DNA of 32,276 bases, from positions 1 through 32,276 of the forward strand of contig CANBWW010000001.1 in the NCBI GenBank assembly GCA_947373235.1. The letters run 5' to 3'. The translations under genes and the position numbers were made by a program. Under the pieces are notes generated by a model that saw only the letters and a list, made by a program, of their open reading frames with translations, searched no databases and had not been told where the DNA came from. This DNA is from Candidatus Altimarinota bacterium. GTDB taxonomy: Bacteria > Patescibacteriota > Gracilibacteria > BD1-5 > UBA2023. Of this stretch, positions 18,796 to 28,007 are shown one piece after another. Position 1 is the first letter of the stretch. Each line of letters starts with the position of its first letter.

Positions 18796-21700
18796 ATGCG
18801 AAATATCAATCGTATTTTCCTTTCTTTTTTCGCTTTCTTTTTTGTTGCGACTCTCTGATATTATGCGTATCTTTTGTCTTTTTGAACCCTTTCATTTGCA
18901 TTCTTTTGAACCGAACATCAAGAGTGAAATCTCCTTCAAATTATTCCTGAAAAATCTGATTTTTTTATAAAGTCCAATTCTAAAATTATTGATCCTGACG
19001 CAATAAAATCTTCTCTTTTTTTCTGAACTCAAGCTCTCCTTACTAATCCTACACTTTCTGGAGAATATAAAGTATCTGTTTCTGGAGAGCTCGTATCTGT
19101 TTCTATGGATCTCAAAAAATGAGAGGTACTTACACTCTCAGCGAAAGCATATAATAAAAATAAAAAAACCTCTGTACAACTTTCCCAGGATATCACACTT
19201 TCTGAACCTATTTCTCGTTATCCAAAAAATCTTCAGTTTCAGCGTATTTGAGAACCAAGAGATCAAACATACAGAGTTGATATGTATGGTTATGATAATA
19301 TTACTCCTGAAGATATCAGGTATTATGCACACTATAAAGTTGGTCAAAGTTGTACTATTCAGGATTCTTGGCAATACATGCTTCCCATAAAGATGCACCC
19401 AATTTCACCAATTCGGAAAATTGGTCAAATTTCTGAAATGGATTTTACTCTGGATTATGATATTTCGGAAGCACATATGTGCCTCATAGGTGGATTTGCT
19501 GGAAATATTTCTCCACTTGAAGATCGTACGATCGTTCCCTTTGTGATCACGGGATCGACTCTGCAGGTTCTTTCTCCAGAAATCGATATGAAAACCCAGT
19601 TGGAGTTTCGTTTTTCATCTCCCATATATTCTGATACTGGCGTACTTTATAGTTCAGAATATATATCCAATCGAGAACAAGCGAAGATAGATTTTTTAAA
19701 ACATCTTGATGTTAATTCTGATATCAAGATCCTTCCTGAAGATATTGTTCTTGCTCCTGATCGTGCCACGATCACACTTCCACTCGAAGAAGGGAAGGAT
19801 TATCATTTTACTCTTCGCGATCTTGAGGATATTTATGGAAGAAAAGCAAGTCAAGAATATTATATTACTCCTCAGAAAGAACCATTTCTTTCGCTGCGTT
19901 TTTCGAGTGATCGCAGTATATATGCAAAGGGTGAAAAAATTCCAGTCAAGCTTTACGCACTTTCCACTCCGAAAAATAGCTATAGCCTCAAATTGTGTCA
20001 GGTTTCACTCGATCCGTATAGCCGTCTTGAGCGTATTGTCGATGAATCTGATCTCAAATATAGAGATTCAGTTTATAATATTTTAAATTCCAAAACGGAT
20101 GCGTTTGGATGTGTAAAAAAAGACATTGTCTTATCAGGAAGTGGATATATTTCACCTTTTGATGTTACTGATCTCATGAACAACCAATCTCTCAAAACCG
20201 GTTTATACGTGCTCTATTTTCGAGATCAAAATGATACCGCTTCTTTTCCTCGATTTATCAAACCTCTTGTTTTTTCTGTTGTTGATACACACCTCACTAT
20301 GAAGGTCGATGCGAGTGGAAATATGCTTATACTGGCGACAGATTTACTCACAGGAAAACCTCTTGTTGGACAGGAAATAACGGCGATGAGAAATATTTCT
20401 CGTACGTATATCGATAAATATGATCAAAATACACAAACCTCCACAAAAGAATATTTACCTCTTTCTGCTCAACGTTTCGCAACGGGAATTGTTTTATGAA
20501 AAACAGATTCTGGTGGATTTCTCGAAATGCATCTTGATTCCTTAAAGAATATAGAAGGGTATGATGATACTCCTTATGGATTATCTTTTGAGAATTGGTG
20601 GGAATATGAGGGGCGTTATGATAGTTTTCTCGTAAAATCTCAGTCATCTGATCGCATGGGTCTGGTCGTCAGCACATGGAATGATGGAATTACAGGATTT
20701 AATTTTTGACTGAAAGAGTCAGATTATTCTTATCAAAATCGTCCCAATTATACATCTTTTCTCAATACTGATCGAAAACTCTATCTTCCATGAGAAACCG
20801 TTCATCTTCATGCGATTGTCAGAAAACAAGGAAAATCTGGAATGATGGTTCCTAGTGATACGCCATTTATACTTTCTGTGACTGATTCTCTCTGAAAAGA
20901 AGTGAAGCATGTTCTTTTAAAAACGAATACGTATGGATCCCTTGGAGCCGATTTTATACTTCCTTCCGATACGAGTCTTGGTTCTTATAATGTCTCTCTT
21001 TCACTTGCTGATAGCACCGAATATATAGAAAATTCGAATACCTATTTTCAGGTAGAAATTTTTAAAAATCCGACGTTTACTCCCAAAGTAAGTCTGAAAT
21101 CGAATGATATAGAAAATGATACAATAAAAGTACTCAAAAAAACTGAAAATACAGATCCAAATTTTCCATGGTACAGTGATTTATATACTGGGGATTTTGG
21201 AGTCGATGGTATCGTCCAGTCTTTTTATTACAATGGATCGCAAATGAAAAATATTCCATTTACGTATCGCATATATCGAAGTGAACATTATAGTGATGAC
21301 TATTTTTCTGATTGTTTCTGGGGTTGTTATTATGAAGCTCCACTCGAATTTTACACAGAATGAACCTGACAGATCGATGCTGATGGGTATGGTATTTTTC
21401 ATGTGCCGATTCACTATACTTCTTACTATAGTGATTATAACTATACTGCAGAAATCACGATCCGAGATCCAGCTACTGGTGAAGAAGTGACGACACCGTC
21501 GAGCCTTCTTGTGAAACTTCCTCTTGCATATAAGACATTTACCCCAGAAAATCCACTTATTTTTACTCCGAATAAAAAAATCCTCAATCCAAATGAAGAT
21601 TTTTCTGGAACATTTTCTCCTACTTATGGAAAATGGGATGCAAGTATAGCTTGAAAATATCACTATCAAATCCTCCATAGATCCTATGAAGAAACCATGG

Positions 21701-24609
21701 TCGATGATATACGTGCCGGGTCTGTCCGAGTAACCAATCCAGTTGATATGATTGTGGAAAGTGGTTCCGTCGAGCGTACAGATTTTTCGACTCGATTCAA
21801 TAACTATCCCCCTTGAGAATATCATTTTATAGTGACACCTGTTATGGATGGTAAGGTGCCTGAAGAAATGATTTCTGATACACTTTTTTATATTTCTGGC
21901 GATACTTCTTCTTTGAAAGATTCGAAACTTCGAGTTATTCCCGATAAAACTATATATCAACCAGGAGAAACCGCTCATGTCATGATTCAACTTCCATTTA
22001 CAGGATCATATTTATTGATTACGGAAGAAAAATGAGGCATTCTCAAAAAAGAATACACCTATGTTACAGGAAATACACTTATGCGAGATATTGTCGTCGA
22101 TGATAGTCTTCTTCCAAATGCATATATAGGTGTGGTAGCATTACATCCGTCTCTCTGAAGTATACTTGATACCAATCGAAGTTATGCTGTTTGATATGGG
22201 GAAATTATTTCTGATATATCTTCTAAGAAATCTATCGTTACCATAAAAACTGATAAAGAAACCTATAAAAATAGGGAACACGTACAAATGGATCTTTCAC
22301 TGACTGATAAAGGAGGAAAACCTCTTCAATGAGAGATCACTGTGATGGTTGTAGATGAAAGTCTGATACGTCTTTTAGGAAATATTGATCTCGACATCAT
22401 ACCAAAATTTTTCCAGAAATTTCCATTTACGATGAAAACATCACTTTCAGATATTGGTATCGAAAGAAATAGATACCTCTCACGAAAATGATCCAATGGC
22501 GGAAGTGGTGATAAATGAGGATGAGGAATACAGATAGCATCACGAACGATTTTTAAAAATACTGCTTACTACAATCCAAGTGTTATTACCGATCCTTCTG
22601 GAAATGCAAAGATTGGATTCGATCTTCCTGATAATGTTACTGATTATCGTATCATTGCGATTTCGAATACACTCGATTCTCATTTTTGAGCTGGAGAAAA
22701 AACTATACAAGTTCGAAAAGATTATGTCGTCGAAGCACATGCTCCCACGATCGTTCGACAGGGTGATACTTTCACCATTTCTACAAATGCCTTTAACAGC
22801 ACTAAGAAAATAACGGGAGCGAATTTGATTATCAAAATCGGTACCGGATCCAGCATGATACAAAAACAGTCATCTATTATACTTAATCCACTTCAGTGAA
22901 CTGGTTCAGATTTTCTTTTTTCTGTTCTTCCTTCTTGGACAGGTTCTCTTTCCTATACTGCCGAATTAAGAGATGGAAATATGGTTTTGGATAGTGTGAC
23001 TCAAAACTTGAAAATCGCACCGATCCCGCTCATAGAAAACACTTTTCGGTCTGTTCATGTTTTTACTGGAACTTCTTTGACGATATGACTTCCGCCGCCT
23101 GAAAAAAGTACTGATCTCGATTTCTCGAAAGTTGGATTAGAGTTTTCTCTCTTTCGTGCGAGTGAATTAAGCAATTCTTTTAACTCGCTTCTTTCATACC
23201 CCTACGGTTGTATCGAACAGACGATAGCGGCAACTCTTCCAAATCTTTTTGCACTCAATTTTGCCGATACCTTACATCTTCCGATTGATCGAAATGAGGC
23301 GATCAAGAATCGTGATGCGTGATTGCAAAAAATCCTTCGCATGCAAGATCCAAGTGGTGGATGGTTGTATTGGGAGGGAAATACAGAACCAGATATTCAT
23401 ATCACTCCATATGTATTGCGCTCACTCCTTGTATTGAGAGATCTTGGAATATCCGTTCCTCAGTCAGTGATCGATCAATGAATAAGCTATATTATCACGA
23501 ACCAATCTTCATATGAAGCTGATCAAAATCTCTTTGCTGAATCTGTATGGACACTTGCATCTTTTGCTCAACCATGAACGAAAGATTGGTGGAATCGCAT
23601 AGATCCAACAAAGCTCGATCGGCATGGATATCTCGCATATGTATATACTGCACATATCCTCAAACTTGATACATCTTTGCTCGATAAAAAACTTGCTGAA
23701 AGTATGAAAAATACTCCAAAGAGTGAAGATTACTGGTATTGGGATCGTGATGCTGATTTTGCTATCTATGCTCGTCTCCTTATGGATCAATGAGAGGATT
23801 CCAGGGCTCAAGAAATCATTACCGATATTCTTTCTCGAGTGGATATGAGTTCATATTATGTATCTACACAGACAAAAATTCAGATTTTTCTGTCACTTGC
23901 TCGAGATATTAGAAATCAAAAAATGAATTTTTCACCGTTTTCCGTCGCTCTGCGATGAGACGGTATTATCACAGATGCTCATTTTTCCCTCCAAAATCCT
24001 CTTGCAAATATAGAAACTCTGAGATCAAAACTCTGACTTTCTTTTCAACTGACTCGTGATCCAAATGATCACCCACTATTCATCACAATGAATATAAAAG
24101 ATCGTCCAAAAGATATTTTTCAGATGCAAGGAGTCAGTGCTGGATGAATGAATCTCAAGAGAAGTTTCGAACTGATTGATGAATCTCGATGAATTGATTC
24201 TGATGGACATTTTATCGTTTCAAAGCCAGTAGATGATATGATTTTTCATCGATGACAACTCTATCGAGTCACTTTAGAATTAGATTTTGATACAGACATT
24301 CCATATTATGAAATGACTATGGAAGACTTTTTTCCTGGTTGATGGAGACCGATTGATAGTATTCTTCGTACTGAGAGTAGCTTTCATAGTGAAAGTGCAC
24401 CATGAACTTATTGGGATCATGTCGAGTCACAGGATGATCGTCTTCTTGCAAATATGTCATATGGATATGGTAAAAAACAAATTTATAGTTATTATATACG
24501 TCCGGAAAGTGTTTGAGAATATTTACTTCCACCAGCAACTGCCTATCTTATGTATCGACCCAGTGTTCATAGTTATACACAGTACGAAAAAGTAAAGGTT
24601 GTAGAATAA
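18796..24609 (+). CDS. Bacterial alpha-2-macroglobulin family thioester-containing protein, N-terminally membrane anchored (1937 aa)
   Basis: Frame +1 is free of TAA/TAG from ATG 18796 to the TAA at 24607-24609, with about 37 in-frame TGA; track ORFs 19282, 20527, 20902, 21403 and 21832 are all in this frame. Thioester motif LLSYPYGCIEQTIAATLPN (CIEQ at 23209-23220). A2M C-terminal receptor-domain-like end MEDFFPGGWRPIDS...WDHVESQDDRLLAN...YSYYIRPESVGEYLLPPATAYLMYRP. The N-terminus MRNINRIFLSFFAFFFVATLGYYAYLLSF is hydrophobic and has no lipobox Cys. Confidence 0.9.
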
Positions 24610-24641: not shown

Positions 24642-24670
24642 TCTATTTCCTCACTCCATTTGAATTATGA
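24642..24670 (+). repeat. Direct repeat copy 1 (29 nt) of the nrdR 5' leader/start region
   Basis: tctatttcctcactccatttgaattatga. Identical to 24783-24811 except one C/T mismatch. Its ATG (24667) opens a 16-codon mini-ORF, MRPIQKLLIFLRNFVF, ending at TAG 24715-24717. Confidence 0.7.
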
Positions 24671-24782: not shown

Positions 24783-24811
24783 TCTATTTCCTCACTTCAT
24801 TTGAATTATGA
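24783..24811 (+). repeat. Direct repeat copy 2 (29 nt), containing the nrdR start codon
   Basis: tctatttcctcacttcatttgaattatga. Its ATG (24808) is the nrdR start. Confidence 0.7.
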
Positions 24812-25254
24812 AATGCCCAAAATGTAAAAATCTTGATACGAAAGTAATCGATTCTCGAAGCACCGAAGACGGAAAGGCTATCCGAAGAAGGCGAGAGTGT
24901 GAAAAATGTGGCGCACGTTTTACGAGTTTTGAACGTCTCGAATTCGTATCATTTCTCGTCGTGAAATCTTCATGAGAAAGTGAGCCTTATGACCGAACGA
25001 AGGTACAAAGTTCTATGCTCAAAGCACTTACGAAACGTGCTTTTATTCCAGAAAAACTCGAAGATGCGATCAATGGACTCGAAAATGAATGGGCACAAAA
25101 TAAGCAGGGAATTACATCGAAACGTATCGGAAGAGATATACTGAGAAAACTGCGTGATCTTGATGAAGTAGCATTTCTCCGATATGCATCTATCTACCAT
25201 AATCATGACAGTGTAAAGTGATTTGTGAAATTCATCGAAGATGAGCTCGGATAA
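24808..25254 (+). CDS. nrdR: Transcriptional repressor NrdR (zinc ribbon plus ATP-cone, 148 aa)
   Basis: [45 protein letters not shown] (CxxC...CxxC ribbon), then ATP-cone VVKSS-G(TGA 24973-24975)[10 protein letters not shown]...[29 protein letters not shown]. Reads through a second TGA at 25219-25221; stop is TAA at 25252-25254. Confidence 0.93.
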
Positions 25255-26248
25255 TATGCAAAAAACTCAAGAACACACTTTTCCTACTATAGAAATAGTA
25301 CCACTTGGTACTGCTTTTCTTCGAGCTCCACTTCTTTCAGATCAACTGATAACTCATATACAGGAACGTATTTCGAAACAAGAAAAAGTTCTTATTTTTT
25401 ATAATCGTCGTGGCTCTGGACGAGCTTTTATATGCCAAGATTGCGGTTATTTTCCGAGGTGTCCTCATTGTGATATTGCCCTTTCTCACCATACCAGTCC
25501 GAAAAATATTCTTCTGTGTCACCATTGCAACTATATAGAAAATCATAGTCTTCTGTGTCCGAATTGCCAAGGAAGTCGATTTCAGAGTATTGGTATCGGT
25601 ATACAAAAAATCGAACAGGATTTGTCCTGATTTTTCCCAAATGTATTGATGACTCGCATTGATTCTGATATCGAGATGAAGAAAAAAGAACTCCTTCAAA
25701 AAGTACAGAGTTCTGATATTGTTCTTTCTACCTATTCGAATATTGCCTTTATTCATCAAGATATCGCTGAAGTCATTTTTCTGCTCTTTGAGTCAGATCT
25801 GACCCTTCCAGATTATCGTATCGAAGAAGAAAGCTACCATACGATCGACTATATAAAAAAATCAGAAAAATCTATACTGATACAAACCTATACTCCTGAT
25901 CATCCACTTTTGCATATCATTTCCGAGGGAAATTATAAGGATTTTCTCGGTTATATAACTCCTGAAAGAAAGAAATTTTTATATCCACCGTATGCACAGT
26001 TTGCACTTTTGCGTATCCATGATATAAGTAAAGATCGTCTTACGAATATCATCGAAAAAATAGTAAACAAGATCGAAATTCTCAAAAAAGATTCCACTTT
26101 TCTCGCATATGATCGTGATATATGGGAACGATATCGTGGTGAATGGGTTCAGAAAATAATTCTCAAAGATATCGATCTTTCTTATATACTCATAGAACTG
26201 GAAGTTGAGATCGTAAAAAATAGAGCCGTAACACTCGAATATCGATAA
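25241..26248 (+). CDS. priA: PriA-like protein: C-terminal part only (helicase lobe 2 remnant, Cys-rich zinc region, C-terminal domain; 335 aa)
   Basis: KVLIFYNRRGSGRAFICQDCGYFPRCPHCDIALSHHTSPKNILLCHHCNYIENHSLLCPNCQGSRFQSIGIGIQKIEQDLS-G-FFP...RIDSD...ILIQTYTPDHPLL...YPPY aligns with the PriA C-terminal half. All four CxxC pairs are present. An in-frame TAA at 25214-25216 blocks any upstream extension, so Walker A/B (lobe 1), the winged helix and the 3'-DNA-binding domain are absent. Overlaps nrdR by 14 nt. Confidence 0.8.
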
Positions 26249-26251
26249 ATA

Positions 26252-27853
26252 TTAGATCTGTATTTCATTTTTCTTTACTATCGTCCAGGCAAATACTCAG
26301 AGAATAGATAAGCCAAATATAAAGAAGAATGCTGGAAAACCAAGCCCAACCAGCAATCATCCAAATACCAGACCGATCACGTTTGCGAGATTTTGTACGA
26401 CTTTTATTGGTCCAGAAGATGCATTTGCATCGACTTCTTTCAGTTTTAGATGATTTGCATAGACACGATTATAGATTTCAAGAAATTGATTTTGTCCCGT
26501 GGACATGCCACATGCATACCCGAGACTATTAATGAGTGCAATTCCTATTATGATTGCAGGGCTGGGAGTACTTCAGAGTGCCAATACTCCCATGATGATC
26601 AAAGATACTCCTGAAAGAATAAGTCCGATCATTCCTATCGTTTTCATTCCTATTTTTTGACCGAGTTTGCTCGCTTGTTCTTGAAGCACGATTCCAGGAA
26701 CCCCTATGATTGCCAAGAGAATATAACTCCAACCTGGCTTAATATTATCCAGAAAATCGAGAAGAAAACTCGATGCAAACGTATCCCAGAATCAGAATAT
26801 AAGGACTAGGCTAATCGTCCACATGAGTCAAAGATAGATCGGATGACTTGTAAAAATTTCCCAGATAATTTTAAATTCTTTGAGACTGGATTTCATAACT
26901 TCTTTCCAAGGTATTTTTTCTCATACTACTTTCTGTTTTGGTTTCATCATGAGATACTTTGTATTTTCTAGGACTTTTTTGATGTCTGCTTTCTGCACAG
27001 TTTCCACGATGTACTCTTTTACATTTTCTTTATTCCATTTTTGTATAGAGATTCGAAATGTATCGATGTCACTGAGTGTAACTGAGTCGAGAGAATTATC
27101 GAAAAATCGAATCGTGAAGATAAGAAATGCTGTAATCACCACTCAGAGAAATATTACAGCAAAAGCAGGATTAATAGAAAGTACGACTCCAGCTAAGAGC
27201 AGTCAGATAAGTGATCCGATACCGAAAGTGATATTATTTCGAGAGAGTATAGTTCCATATTCACTTGGATCTGCATGAGAAAGGACATATCCATATGTAC
27301 AGACATCATTGATTTCTTTTGTGATTCCATAACAGATCGATGCTACGATGACTCATACCCAACTGAGCGCACTGTTAAAAAACCAATCATTTCCTGCTTT
27401 GAGTGATTCTGGAGTGATCACACCACTCACGAAGTGTAGGATGCTGAAAAACTTAAAAATAAAGCCAAAAAATATTCCTGTTGCTATGAGTTGGGAGATC
27501 GCACCGATGATGAACATTTTTTTGGTGGATATATGTCTCTGCAGGATTCAAAGTGGAATATCAATACAAAAAGAAACAAAGTTTGCAAAACCCAGAAAGA
27601 CTCCTACGAGAGCCACACTTTGGAGAAGAAATGTAAAAAAGAATACGACCGAAAAATGAAAAATCATCCAAGCAAATCCTTGAAATGAATTTGTGAGATA
27701 AAAATTTCTCAATCGATATCCATCGAGTTTGGTTTGTACCGAGATAATAACAGGATTCTCCTCTGATGATATATGATCTGTTTGGTTTTCAGAAGCAATT
27801 TCCAGTGTAGAGATATCGAGATTTTCAGATTTTGATACAGTATTTTCTTCCAT
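26252..27853 (-). CDS. Multi-pass membrane transporter, probably major facilitator superfamily (533 aa)
   Basis: The minus frame joins track ORFs 27548..27925 and 26921..27142 and continues through TGA to the TAA at 26252-26254. About 12 hydrophobic segments split by a long central loop. MFS motif-A-like IPLGILQRHISTKKMFIIG lies after TM2. Start placed at ATG 27853 (MEENTVSK...); the TTG at 27925 is an alternative. Confidence 0.7.
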
Positions 27854-28007
27854 AATAAGTGAAACGCAAAACGAACCGTATATATGCGGTGTTTGCGGGA
27901 CTGAGGTTAAAGCTTCCTTGACCAAGGAATAGGTTTATTCTATCAGCATATTTCTATTTATACAAGAATTTACCTTCTTTTTTCCTTGAATTTTCCGATT
28001 TCTATTT

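Follow-up and report, generated by a model that had tools for sequence, protein, structure and literature searches.

A PriA encoded by two unlinked genes, with the ATPase motifs lost from both, in a lineage of Gracilibacteria

INTRODUCTION

PriA is the near-universal initiator of replication restart in bacteria, and nearly all work on it, to our knowledge, concerns a helicase made of a single chain. One gene of a Candidatus Altimarinota bacterium (Gracilibacteria; BD1-5; UBA2023) resembles the second half of this protein only. The gene lies in a 32,276-nucleotide stretch of DNA that was analyzed as a whole and is called the window here (GenBank assembly GCA_947373235.1, contig CANBWW010000001.1, positions 1 to 32,276). 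What is a gene for half of a PriA, and is it of any use to the cell? An original prediction, made from the sequence alone, offered three alternatives: one half of a split priA, an ATPase-dead adaptor, or a decaying gene in a reduced genome. These alternatives were followed up in the window's own genome, in 41 genomes of its order (25 from the window's family, f1, including its own, and eight each from families f2 and f3), and in a class-level sample of 121 genomes.

RESULTS

The C-terminal half of PriA in the window

The open reading frame at 25256–26248 is the C-terminal half of PriA, comprising helicase lobe 2, the zinc-binding Cys-rich region, and the C-terminal domain (CTD) (Table 1). Under genetic code 25, in which TGA encodes glycine, it translates to 330 amino acids within a single frame (25223–26248) bounded 5' by a TAA, and when read with table 11 it is split at an internal TGA into pieces of 129 and 200 amino acids. 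Translation likely starts at ATG 25256, one base past the nrdR stop codon, because the closest homologue aligns from there; this is Met6 of the 335-aa translation from the alternative start, ATG 25241. The protein aligns to positions 157–478 only of the 509 in the PriA equivalog model TIGR00595 (E = 8.3e-57), and its score of 192.9 bits is below the full-length cut-off of 230.35. Residues 32–278 correspond to 418–675 of the crystallized PriA in PDB entries 4NL4 and 6DGD (E = 4e-30), and coverage runs from the start of lobe 2 through the C-terminus. An AlphaFold2 (AF2) model was predicted with high confidence (pLDDT 90.7, pTM 0.84), and the top Foldseek matches to it were all PriA (6DCR, 6DGD, and 4NL4; E = 1e-21 to 3e-25), with TMq of 0.74–0.76 over ~340 columns and the full length of the C-half. 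The lobe 2 and CTD fold of PriA is thus present, and the 3'-DNA-binding domain (3'BD) and lobe 1 are absent from this polypeptide. No N-terminal PriA sequence is possible 5' of it in the window, since nrdR occupies the upstream DNA.

The Cys-rich region matches the Pfam family Zn_ribbon_PriA (E = 1.3e-5), and its CxxC pairs (C65/68, C74/77, C93/96, and C106/109) are invariant across 42 homologues. Two helicase motifs are degraded. In the HMMER alignment, motif V of Klebsiella pneumoniae PriA, GTQMLAKGHHFP, is replaced by STYSNIAFIHQD, and motif VI, QVSGRAGRAG, is replaced by DYIKKSEKS, which contains no arginine. The original prediction had described these main features: an alignment to PriA from near the NRRG motif to the C-terminus, four retained CxxC pairs, a replaced motif V (in which, as the alignment shows, threonine alone is kept), a motif VI reduced to DYIKKSEKS with loss of the arginine finger (and, as the alignment adds, of six residues), and a TAA and overlapping nrdR that leave no room for an N-terminal lobe. 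Each of these points held, as did retention of the fold containing the Cys-rich region and CTD, which it had proposed to check by structure prediction (pLDDT 90.7, TMq ~0.75 to PriA).

Table 1. Positions of the priA C-half gene, its landmarks, and the upstream gene in the window
Feature	Position	Strand	Basis
nrdR, 148 aa	24808..25254	+	TIGR00244, E 3.5e-45
In-frame TAA closing the C-half frame 5'	25214..25216	+	Table 25 ORF reading
priA C-half gene (lobe 2, Cys-rich region, C-terminal domain)	25256..26248	+	TIGR00595, PDB PriA, AF2, Foldseek
First beta-strand of lobe 2 (IEIVPL); the fission point immediately precedes it, within the linker between lobes 1 and 2	25289..25306	+	Motif table, AF2 model
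Motif IV (NRRG), conserved	25403..25414	+	Alignment of homologues
Cys-rich region, four CxxC pairs (eight Cys)	25433..25567	+	Alignment of homologues
TGA decoded as Gly130	25628..25630	+	Code 25
Eroded motif V (STYSNIAFIHQD), Thr the sole retained residue	25727..25762	+	HMMER alignment, motif table
Motif VI remnant DYIKKSEKS, 6-residue deletion, no arginine finger	25847..25873	+	HMMER alignment, motif table
C-terminal domain, YPPY motif to end	25982..26245	+	Motif table, AF2, Foldseek
Stop codon TAA	26246–26248	+	

The N-terminal half elsewhere in the genome

The genome search for an N-terminal half that the original prediction had called for identified a separate gene on another contig (C43:3206-4060, minus strand, 285 aa) encoding the 3'BD and lobe 1, from which the GSGKT and DEEH motifs have been lost. 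It was recovered with a profile built from five f2 N-halves (E = 1.2e-25), and it scores 44.6 bits against Pfam PriA_3primeBD (PF17764; cut-off 22.7). The f2 N-halves themselves are 315–326 aa long, have a 3'BD-like N-terminus followed by GVTGSGKTE, PEIxLTxQ, DEEHD, and SGTP, and end right past motif III; they match TIGR00595 model positions 1–165 strongly and lie elsewhere on the chromosome from the C-half. The AF2 model of the window genome's own N-half has a pLDDT of 91.4 and a pTM of 0.89, and its best Foldseek match is 6DCR, E. coli PriA without the winged helix (E = 2e-14, TMq 0.71). A winged-helix domain is not apparent in the N-half, the best match being a winged-helix deletion structure. 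Jointly, the two genes carry every PriA domain except the winged helix, and both products fold like PriA in the AF2 models. Flanking the N-half gene are a PBP2/FtsI-like transpeptidase gene downstream (C43:829-3216, minus strand, gap of ~26 nt) and a gene for a small uncharacterized protein of 157 aa upstream (C43:4132-4602, minus strand).

The N-half ends ~15 aa past motif III, at the final strand of lobe 1, and in the C-half only ~11 aa precede the strand that opens lobe 2, which places the cut in the inter-lobe linker. A split intein places an IntN of ~100 aa at the end of the N-half and an IntC of ~35 aa, with its nucleophile, at the start of the C-half. Protein trans-splicing was rejected, as neither fission end has room for an intein half.

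The assembly is 881 kb in 87 contigs and 86% complete. A TIGR00595 search of the whole assembly returned no other PriA-like gene, and the remaining matches were Mfd, RecG, and unrelated SF2 helicases; a full-length priA elsewhere, which would have undone the original prediction, was thus searched for and not found in this incomplete assembly. Other candidates for an N-half were examined and rejected. A match on contig C62 has a CarD/TRCF domain followed by GDVGFGKT...DEEH and is Mfd at a contig end. Lobe-1-like matches near the C-half, at a distance of ~10 kb in f3 and 1.5 kb upstream in a further genome (G007), belong to complete RecG proteins, with a wedge domain, DEQHRFG, and QLHQFRGRVGRG.

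Distribution and phylogeny of the split

A stand-alone C-half is present in all 41 genomes of the order and a stand-alone N-half in 39. The f2 N-half profile detected no N-half in one f2 genome that is 99% complete and has an intact C-half (G037), nor in a congener of the window's genome that is 80% complete (G001). The halves are at distant loci, 70–350 kb apart in single-contig genomes, and 33 relatives that are at least 90% complete fit the same pattern, with no further priA-like gene. The most likely origin is a cut of priA, at the linker between the RecA-like lobes, in an ancestor of this Gracilibacteria order.

Comparison of priA loci across Gracilibacteria, another check suggested with the original prediction, found the split in 39 of the 41 genomes of the order and in other families as well. 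In the 121-genome sample, an ordinary priA of 640–800 aa in one frame is the rule in most families, among them f27, which uses code 25. Separate-locus halves with intact motifs were found in f6, f7, f8, f12, and f18, and separate-locus halves with motifs dead in both were found in f14 (code 25) and f17. The intact-motif split genes of f6, f7, f12, and f18 are in code-11 genomes (for example, 634516-635001 and 1488201-1489154 on contig C1 of G075; also G044, G049, and G055). Since code-11 families have a split priA and a code-25 family has a full-length one, fission is not tied to recoding. It seems to be recurrent in the class and independent of the recoded lineages.

A maximum-likelihood tree of the C-half region, which is indicative only given that it covers one protein at such depth, groups f1, f2, and f3 with 100% support, adds f17 with 99%, and joins f1 and f3 with 80%, f3 being nested within f1. 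In the same tree, the split forms of f7, f12, and f18 are placed among full-length families with 69–91% support. These placements suggest that priA was split independently several times and that the motor was lost on at least two or three separate occasions.

Motor motifs across both halves

In SF2 helicases, motifs Ia, Ib, IV, and V touch nucleic acid and motifs I, II, and VI touch the NTP. A motif table for the 41 genomes shows that f2 keeps all of them, the N-half carrying I, Ia, Ib, II, and III and the C-half carrying IV, V, and VI. Families f1 and f3 have lost part of the set. Their N-halves lack the P-loop by deletion and have DEEH changed to IEDS (as in the window's own genome) or xHExL, and in their C-halves a 6-residue deletion takes motif VI with its arginines, and motif V is eroded. 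They retain Ia (PD/PE), Ib (GTRR), IV (NRRG), and the threonine of motif V, together with all eight cysteines, IQTYxP, and YPP(Y/F). Wherever both genes are present (24 f1 and 8 f3 genomes), the loss extends to both halves. It falls on the NTP site, and the DNA-binding face is kept. The window genome's own gene pair has none of the NTPase motifs I (GxGSGKT), II (DEEH), and VI (QxxGRxGR); with these missing from both halves, the canonical site can neither bind nor hydrolyze ATP. It is near certain that PriA in this lineage is split and its motor dead.

The split forms of f2, f6, f7, f8, f12, and f18 share the fission point, domain content, and separate loci with the window's family, and they keep the GxGSGKT, DEEH, GTxM..G, and QxxGRxxR motifs that this family has lost. 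They are presumably active two-subunit helicases. Both halves were recovered from 47 genomes, and in every one of these Walker A/B of the N-half and motif VI of the C-half are in the same state (34 dead/dead and 13 intact/intact). Such co-variation between unlinked genes would be expected of one composite site.

This co-variation bears on the possibility that the C-half acts alone, as an interaction module made of the zinc region and CTD, and that the N-half has an unrelated or independent role. The genes are unlinked and have different neighbors (the C-half is next to nrdR and the N-half next to a PBP2-like gene), G037 has a C-half and no detectable N-half, and in E. coli the PriA CTD can bind DNA in isolation (PMC5778457). 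We nonetheless consider a solitary C-half unlikely, as the halves co-occur in 39 of 41 genomes, their motif states match in 47 of 47, which is expected only if they form one joint site, and the families with intact motifs divide these between two proteins that can act only when paired.

A motor that is still active is considerably less likely again. The split protein would have to hydrolyze NTP at a non-canonical site or make use of the lobe 1 of some other helicase. In its favor, E. coli PriA has been proposed to have a second nucleotide site, a weaker one (PMC5778457), and the split protein retains motifs Ia, Ib, and IV and part of motif V. Against this, the P-loop is deleted rather than substituted, DEEH has become IEDS, motif VI is deleted with both of its arginines, and the other lobe-1-like sequences in the genome are all in complete Mfd, RecG, and other helicases.

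Selection on the two halves

The dN/dS ratios were calculated by the Nei-Gojobori method under code 25 and are rough values, as dS is ~1 or saturated in most pairs. Comparisons of the window's gene with family members at 55%–60% identity were saturated for dS, and pairs from f3 and the congener G001 were used. The closest ATPase-dead pair, from f3, has a dN/dS of 0.10 for the N-half and 0.05 for the C-half (dS ~1.1). For the C-half of the window against that of G001 the ratio is 0.27 (dS 1.1), which is an upper bound owing to dS saturation. The C-half frame is intact in all 41 genomes, across three families and at 30%–60% identity. Both half genes are intact and under purifying selection, and the test of dN/dS proposed with the original prediction (0.05–0.27) points the same way.

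A remnant of priA that lost its 5' half and is drifting in a reduced genome would account for the erosion of ATPase motifs V and VI and for a TIGR00595 score under the family cut-off, and the genome is indeed small and reduced (0.88 Mb). A pseudogene is ruled out for practical purposes because of the low dN/dS and the unbroken frames in 41 of 41 genomes; in addition, the eight cysteines, NRRG, IQTYxP, and YPP are invariant or nearly so, the C-half fold is confidently predicted, and the N-half survives as a separate conserved gene. Two of the three original alternatives therefore stand together, a split half (with its N-half on C43 and in 39 of 41 relatives) and an ATPase-dead protein (with the NTP motifs gone from both halves), and the third, a decaying gene, falls (ORFs intact, dN/dS 0.05–0.27, pLDDT 90.7).

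Breakage of a full-length priA by an assembly, frameshift, genetic-code, or binning error is scarcely credible, even in a fragmented metagenome-assembled genome of 87 contigs and with a wrong code (table 11) that does fragment the ORF: an upstream assembly error, the other way in which the original prediction could have failed, was looked for and not found, a complete nrdR fills the DNA upstream, the nrdR-priA(C) junction is repeated in 28 further genomes, the split is present in closed single-contig genomes with the halves 70–350 kb apart, and N-halves end and C-halves start at one structural position in all lineages.

Gene context and helicase-loading partners

The nrdR gene is directly upstream of the C-half, with its stop codon 1 nt ahead of ATG 25256. 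This adjacency occurs in 20 of 25 f1 genomes, 8 of 8 f3 genomes, and none of the eight f2 genomes, which places the origin of this operon-like link in the ATPase-dead clade. A 29-nt direct repeat, TCTATTTCCTCACTYCATTTGAATTATGA, is present at 24642–24670 and 24783–24811 of the window (28/29 identical). The start codon of nrdR forms the end of the second copy, and the first precedes a mini-ORF of 16 codons (ATG 24668). Its 25-nt core has 12 copies in the genome (at most four mismatches), every one ending in ATG, and has the look of a 5' leader or translation-start element common to several genes. Further upstream, a 1,937-aa ORF (18796–24609, plus strand) with 37 TGA = Gly codons ends ~200 nt before nrdR and, from a thioester-type motif (YPYGCIEQT), looks like a bacterial alpha-2-macroglobulin-like protein. 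Downstream, a gene for a transporter-like multi-pass membrane protein of 557 aa (26252–27925, minus strand) is convergent with the C-half, and the two frames end ~3 nt apart.

The genome encodes DnaB (C13:2764-4059), and DnaB and DnaA are present in the order (nine genomes: G000, G005, G013, G015, G020, G023, G027, G028, and G031). No helicase loader of the DciA (PF05258), DnaD-like (PF07261), or DnaC/DnaI type (PF01695) was detected in those nine genomes. A PF01695 (DnaC/IstB) match in the window's own genome was rejected as a loader, the protein being DnaA.

DISCUSSION

The reading that we favor, with a probability of roughly 0.75, is that the C-half is one subunit of a two-piece, ATPase-dead PriA scaffold for fork recognition and replisome recruitment. 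The two polypeptides would come together non-covalently in a particle with the shape of PriA. The 3'BD of full-length PriA is packed tightly against the helicase domain, and the CTD, 3'BD, and lobe 1 pack together and all contribute to the site for the SSB tail (PMC5778457); here, the parts of that site would derive from both polypeptides. Such a particle would recognize abandoned forks via its 3'BD, CTD, and lobes, and it may nucleate DnaB reloading without unwinding DNA, by analogy with two single-chain proteins. E. coli PriA K230R has no ATPase, helicase, or translocase activity and is near wild type, assembling primosomes via the PriA-PriB route (PMC5778457), and the PriA of Deinococcus radiodurans, a naturally occurring pseudohelicase, still binds both forks and DnaB (Lopper et al. 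2015, PMC4504706). Co-transcription with nrdR probably co-expresses the C-half with a regulator of dNTP supply. The split PriA may have some function other than replication restart.

Once the two genes are combined, the domain order is that of canonical PriA from E. coli and K. pneumoniae (4NL4, 6DGD, 6DCR, and 8FAK), namely 3'BD, lobe 1, lobe 2 with an insert of four CxxC pairs, and CTD. The folds agree (TMq 0.71–0.76), and motifs Ia, Ib, IV, the Cys-rich region, and YPP are shared. The canonical protein is one polypeptide of 650–800 aa, whereas here there are two unlinked genes, no apparent winged helix, no Walker A, Walker B, or motif VI, and an eroded motif V. The D. radiodurans protein has likewise lost catalytic motifs and been retained, and the gene pair fits the description of a PriA pseudohelicase, in which the architecture is under selection and Walker A/B are non-functional. 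That protein differs in being a single polypeptide with a substituted Walker motif (GKT to GRT) (PMC4504706), in contrast to a split protein with the P-loop and motif VI deleted. The loss of the motor in Gracilibacteria is independent of the loss in Deinococcus, and it apparently happened more than once in the class (f1 and f3, f14, and f17). A full-length PriA representative of 726 aa (P0038) also has a degenerate Walker A (GIPYSAKTE) and motif VI (VVGGGEGE), which suggests further single-chain pseudohelicases outside Deinococcus-Thermus.

A PriA working as two non-covalent polypeptides also has a precedent in E. coli, where PriA made as two pieces is nearly fully active, according to the account of Leroux et al. 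(2017) given in PMC5778457. As described there, that form comes from a laboratory suppressor in which the winged-helix domain is cut (residues 154/157), with the motor whole in one piece, whereas the cut described here is natural, falls between the RecA-like lobes and through the ATPase site, and separates the halves to distant loci. Our full-text search of the literature found no description of a naturally split priA, nor of PriA in Gracilibacteria or the CPR. What is new is not a system but a natural two-gene PriA, divided across the ATPase site, whose motor has been lost repeatedly.

A more far-reaching proposal, which we regard as doubtful, is that the particle formed by the two halves is the main, possibly the only, adaptor that delivers DnaB to DNA. 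It comes from the lack of any DciA, DnaC/DnaI-type, or DnaD-type loader detected in the nine genomes of the order. With the halves on unlinked genes, one of them in an operon with nrdR, their separate expression would control assembly and tie replisome reloading to dNTP supply, and repeated fission and motor loss would reflect the advantage of a regulated heterodimer, not neutral fission. If so, the fissions (f7, f12, and f18 as against the clade of f1, f2, f3, and f17) and the motor losses (f1 with f3, f14, and f17) would have been selected.

For annotation, a "truncated priA" in code-25 and other Patescibacteria genomes is a real gene whose partner is unannotated and highly diverged. The two-piece, ATPase-dead PriA of the window's lineage is one end of a natural series within the class, from full-length active forms (most families) through split forms with an intact motor to split forms with a dead one. 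In the intact-motor split forms (f2, f6, f7, f8, f12, and f18) the ATPase site must form between two proteins, and the series as a whole is a ready system for probing communication between PriA lobes and domains. Loss of the motor is recurrent in nature, beyond Deinococcus, and the series points to the 3'BD, the DNA-contact motifs, the zinc region, and the CTD as the indispensable parts of PriA.
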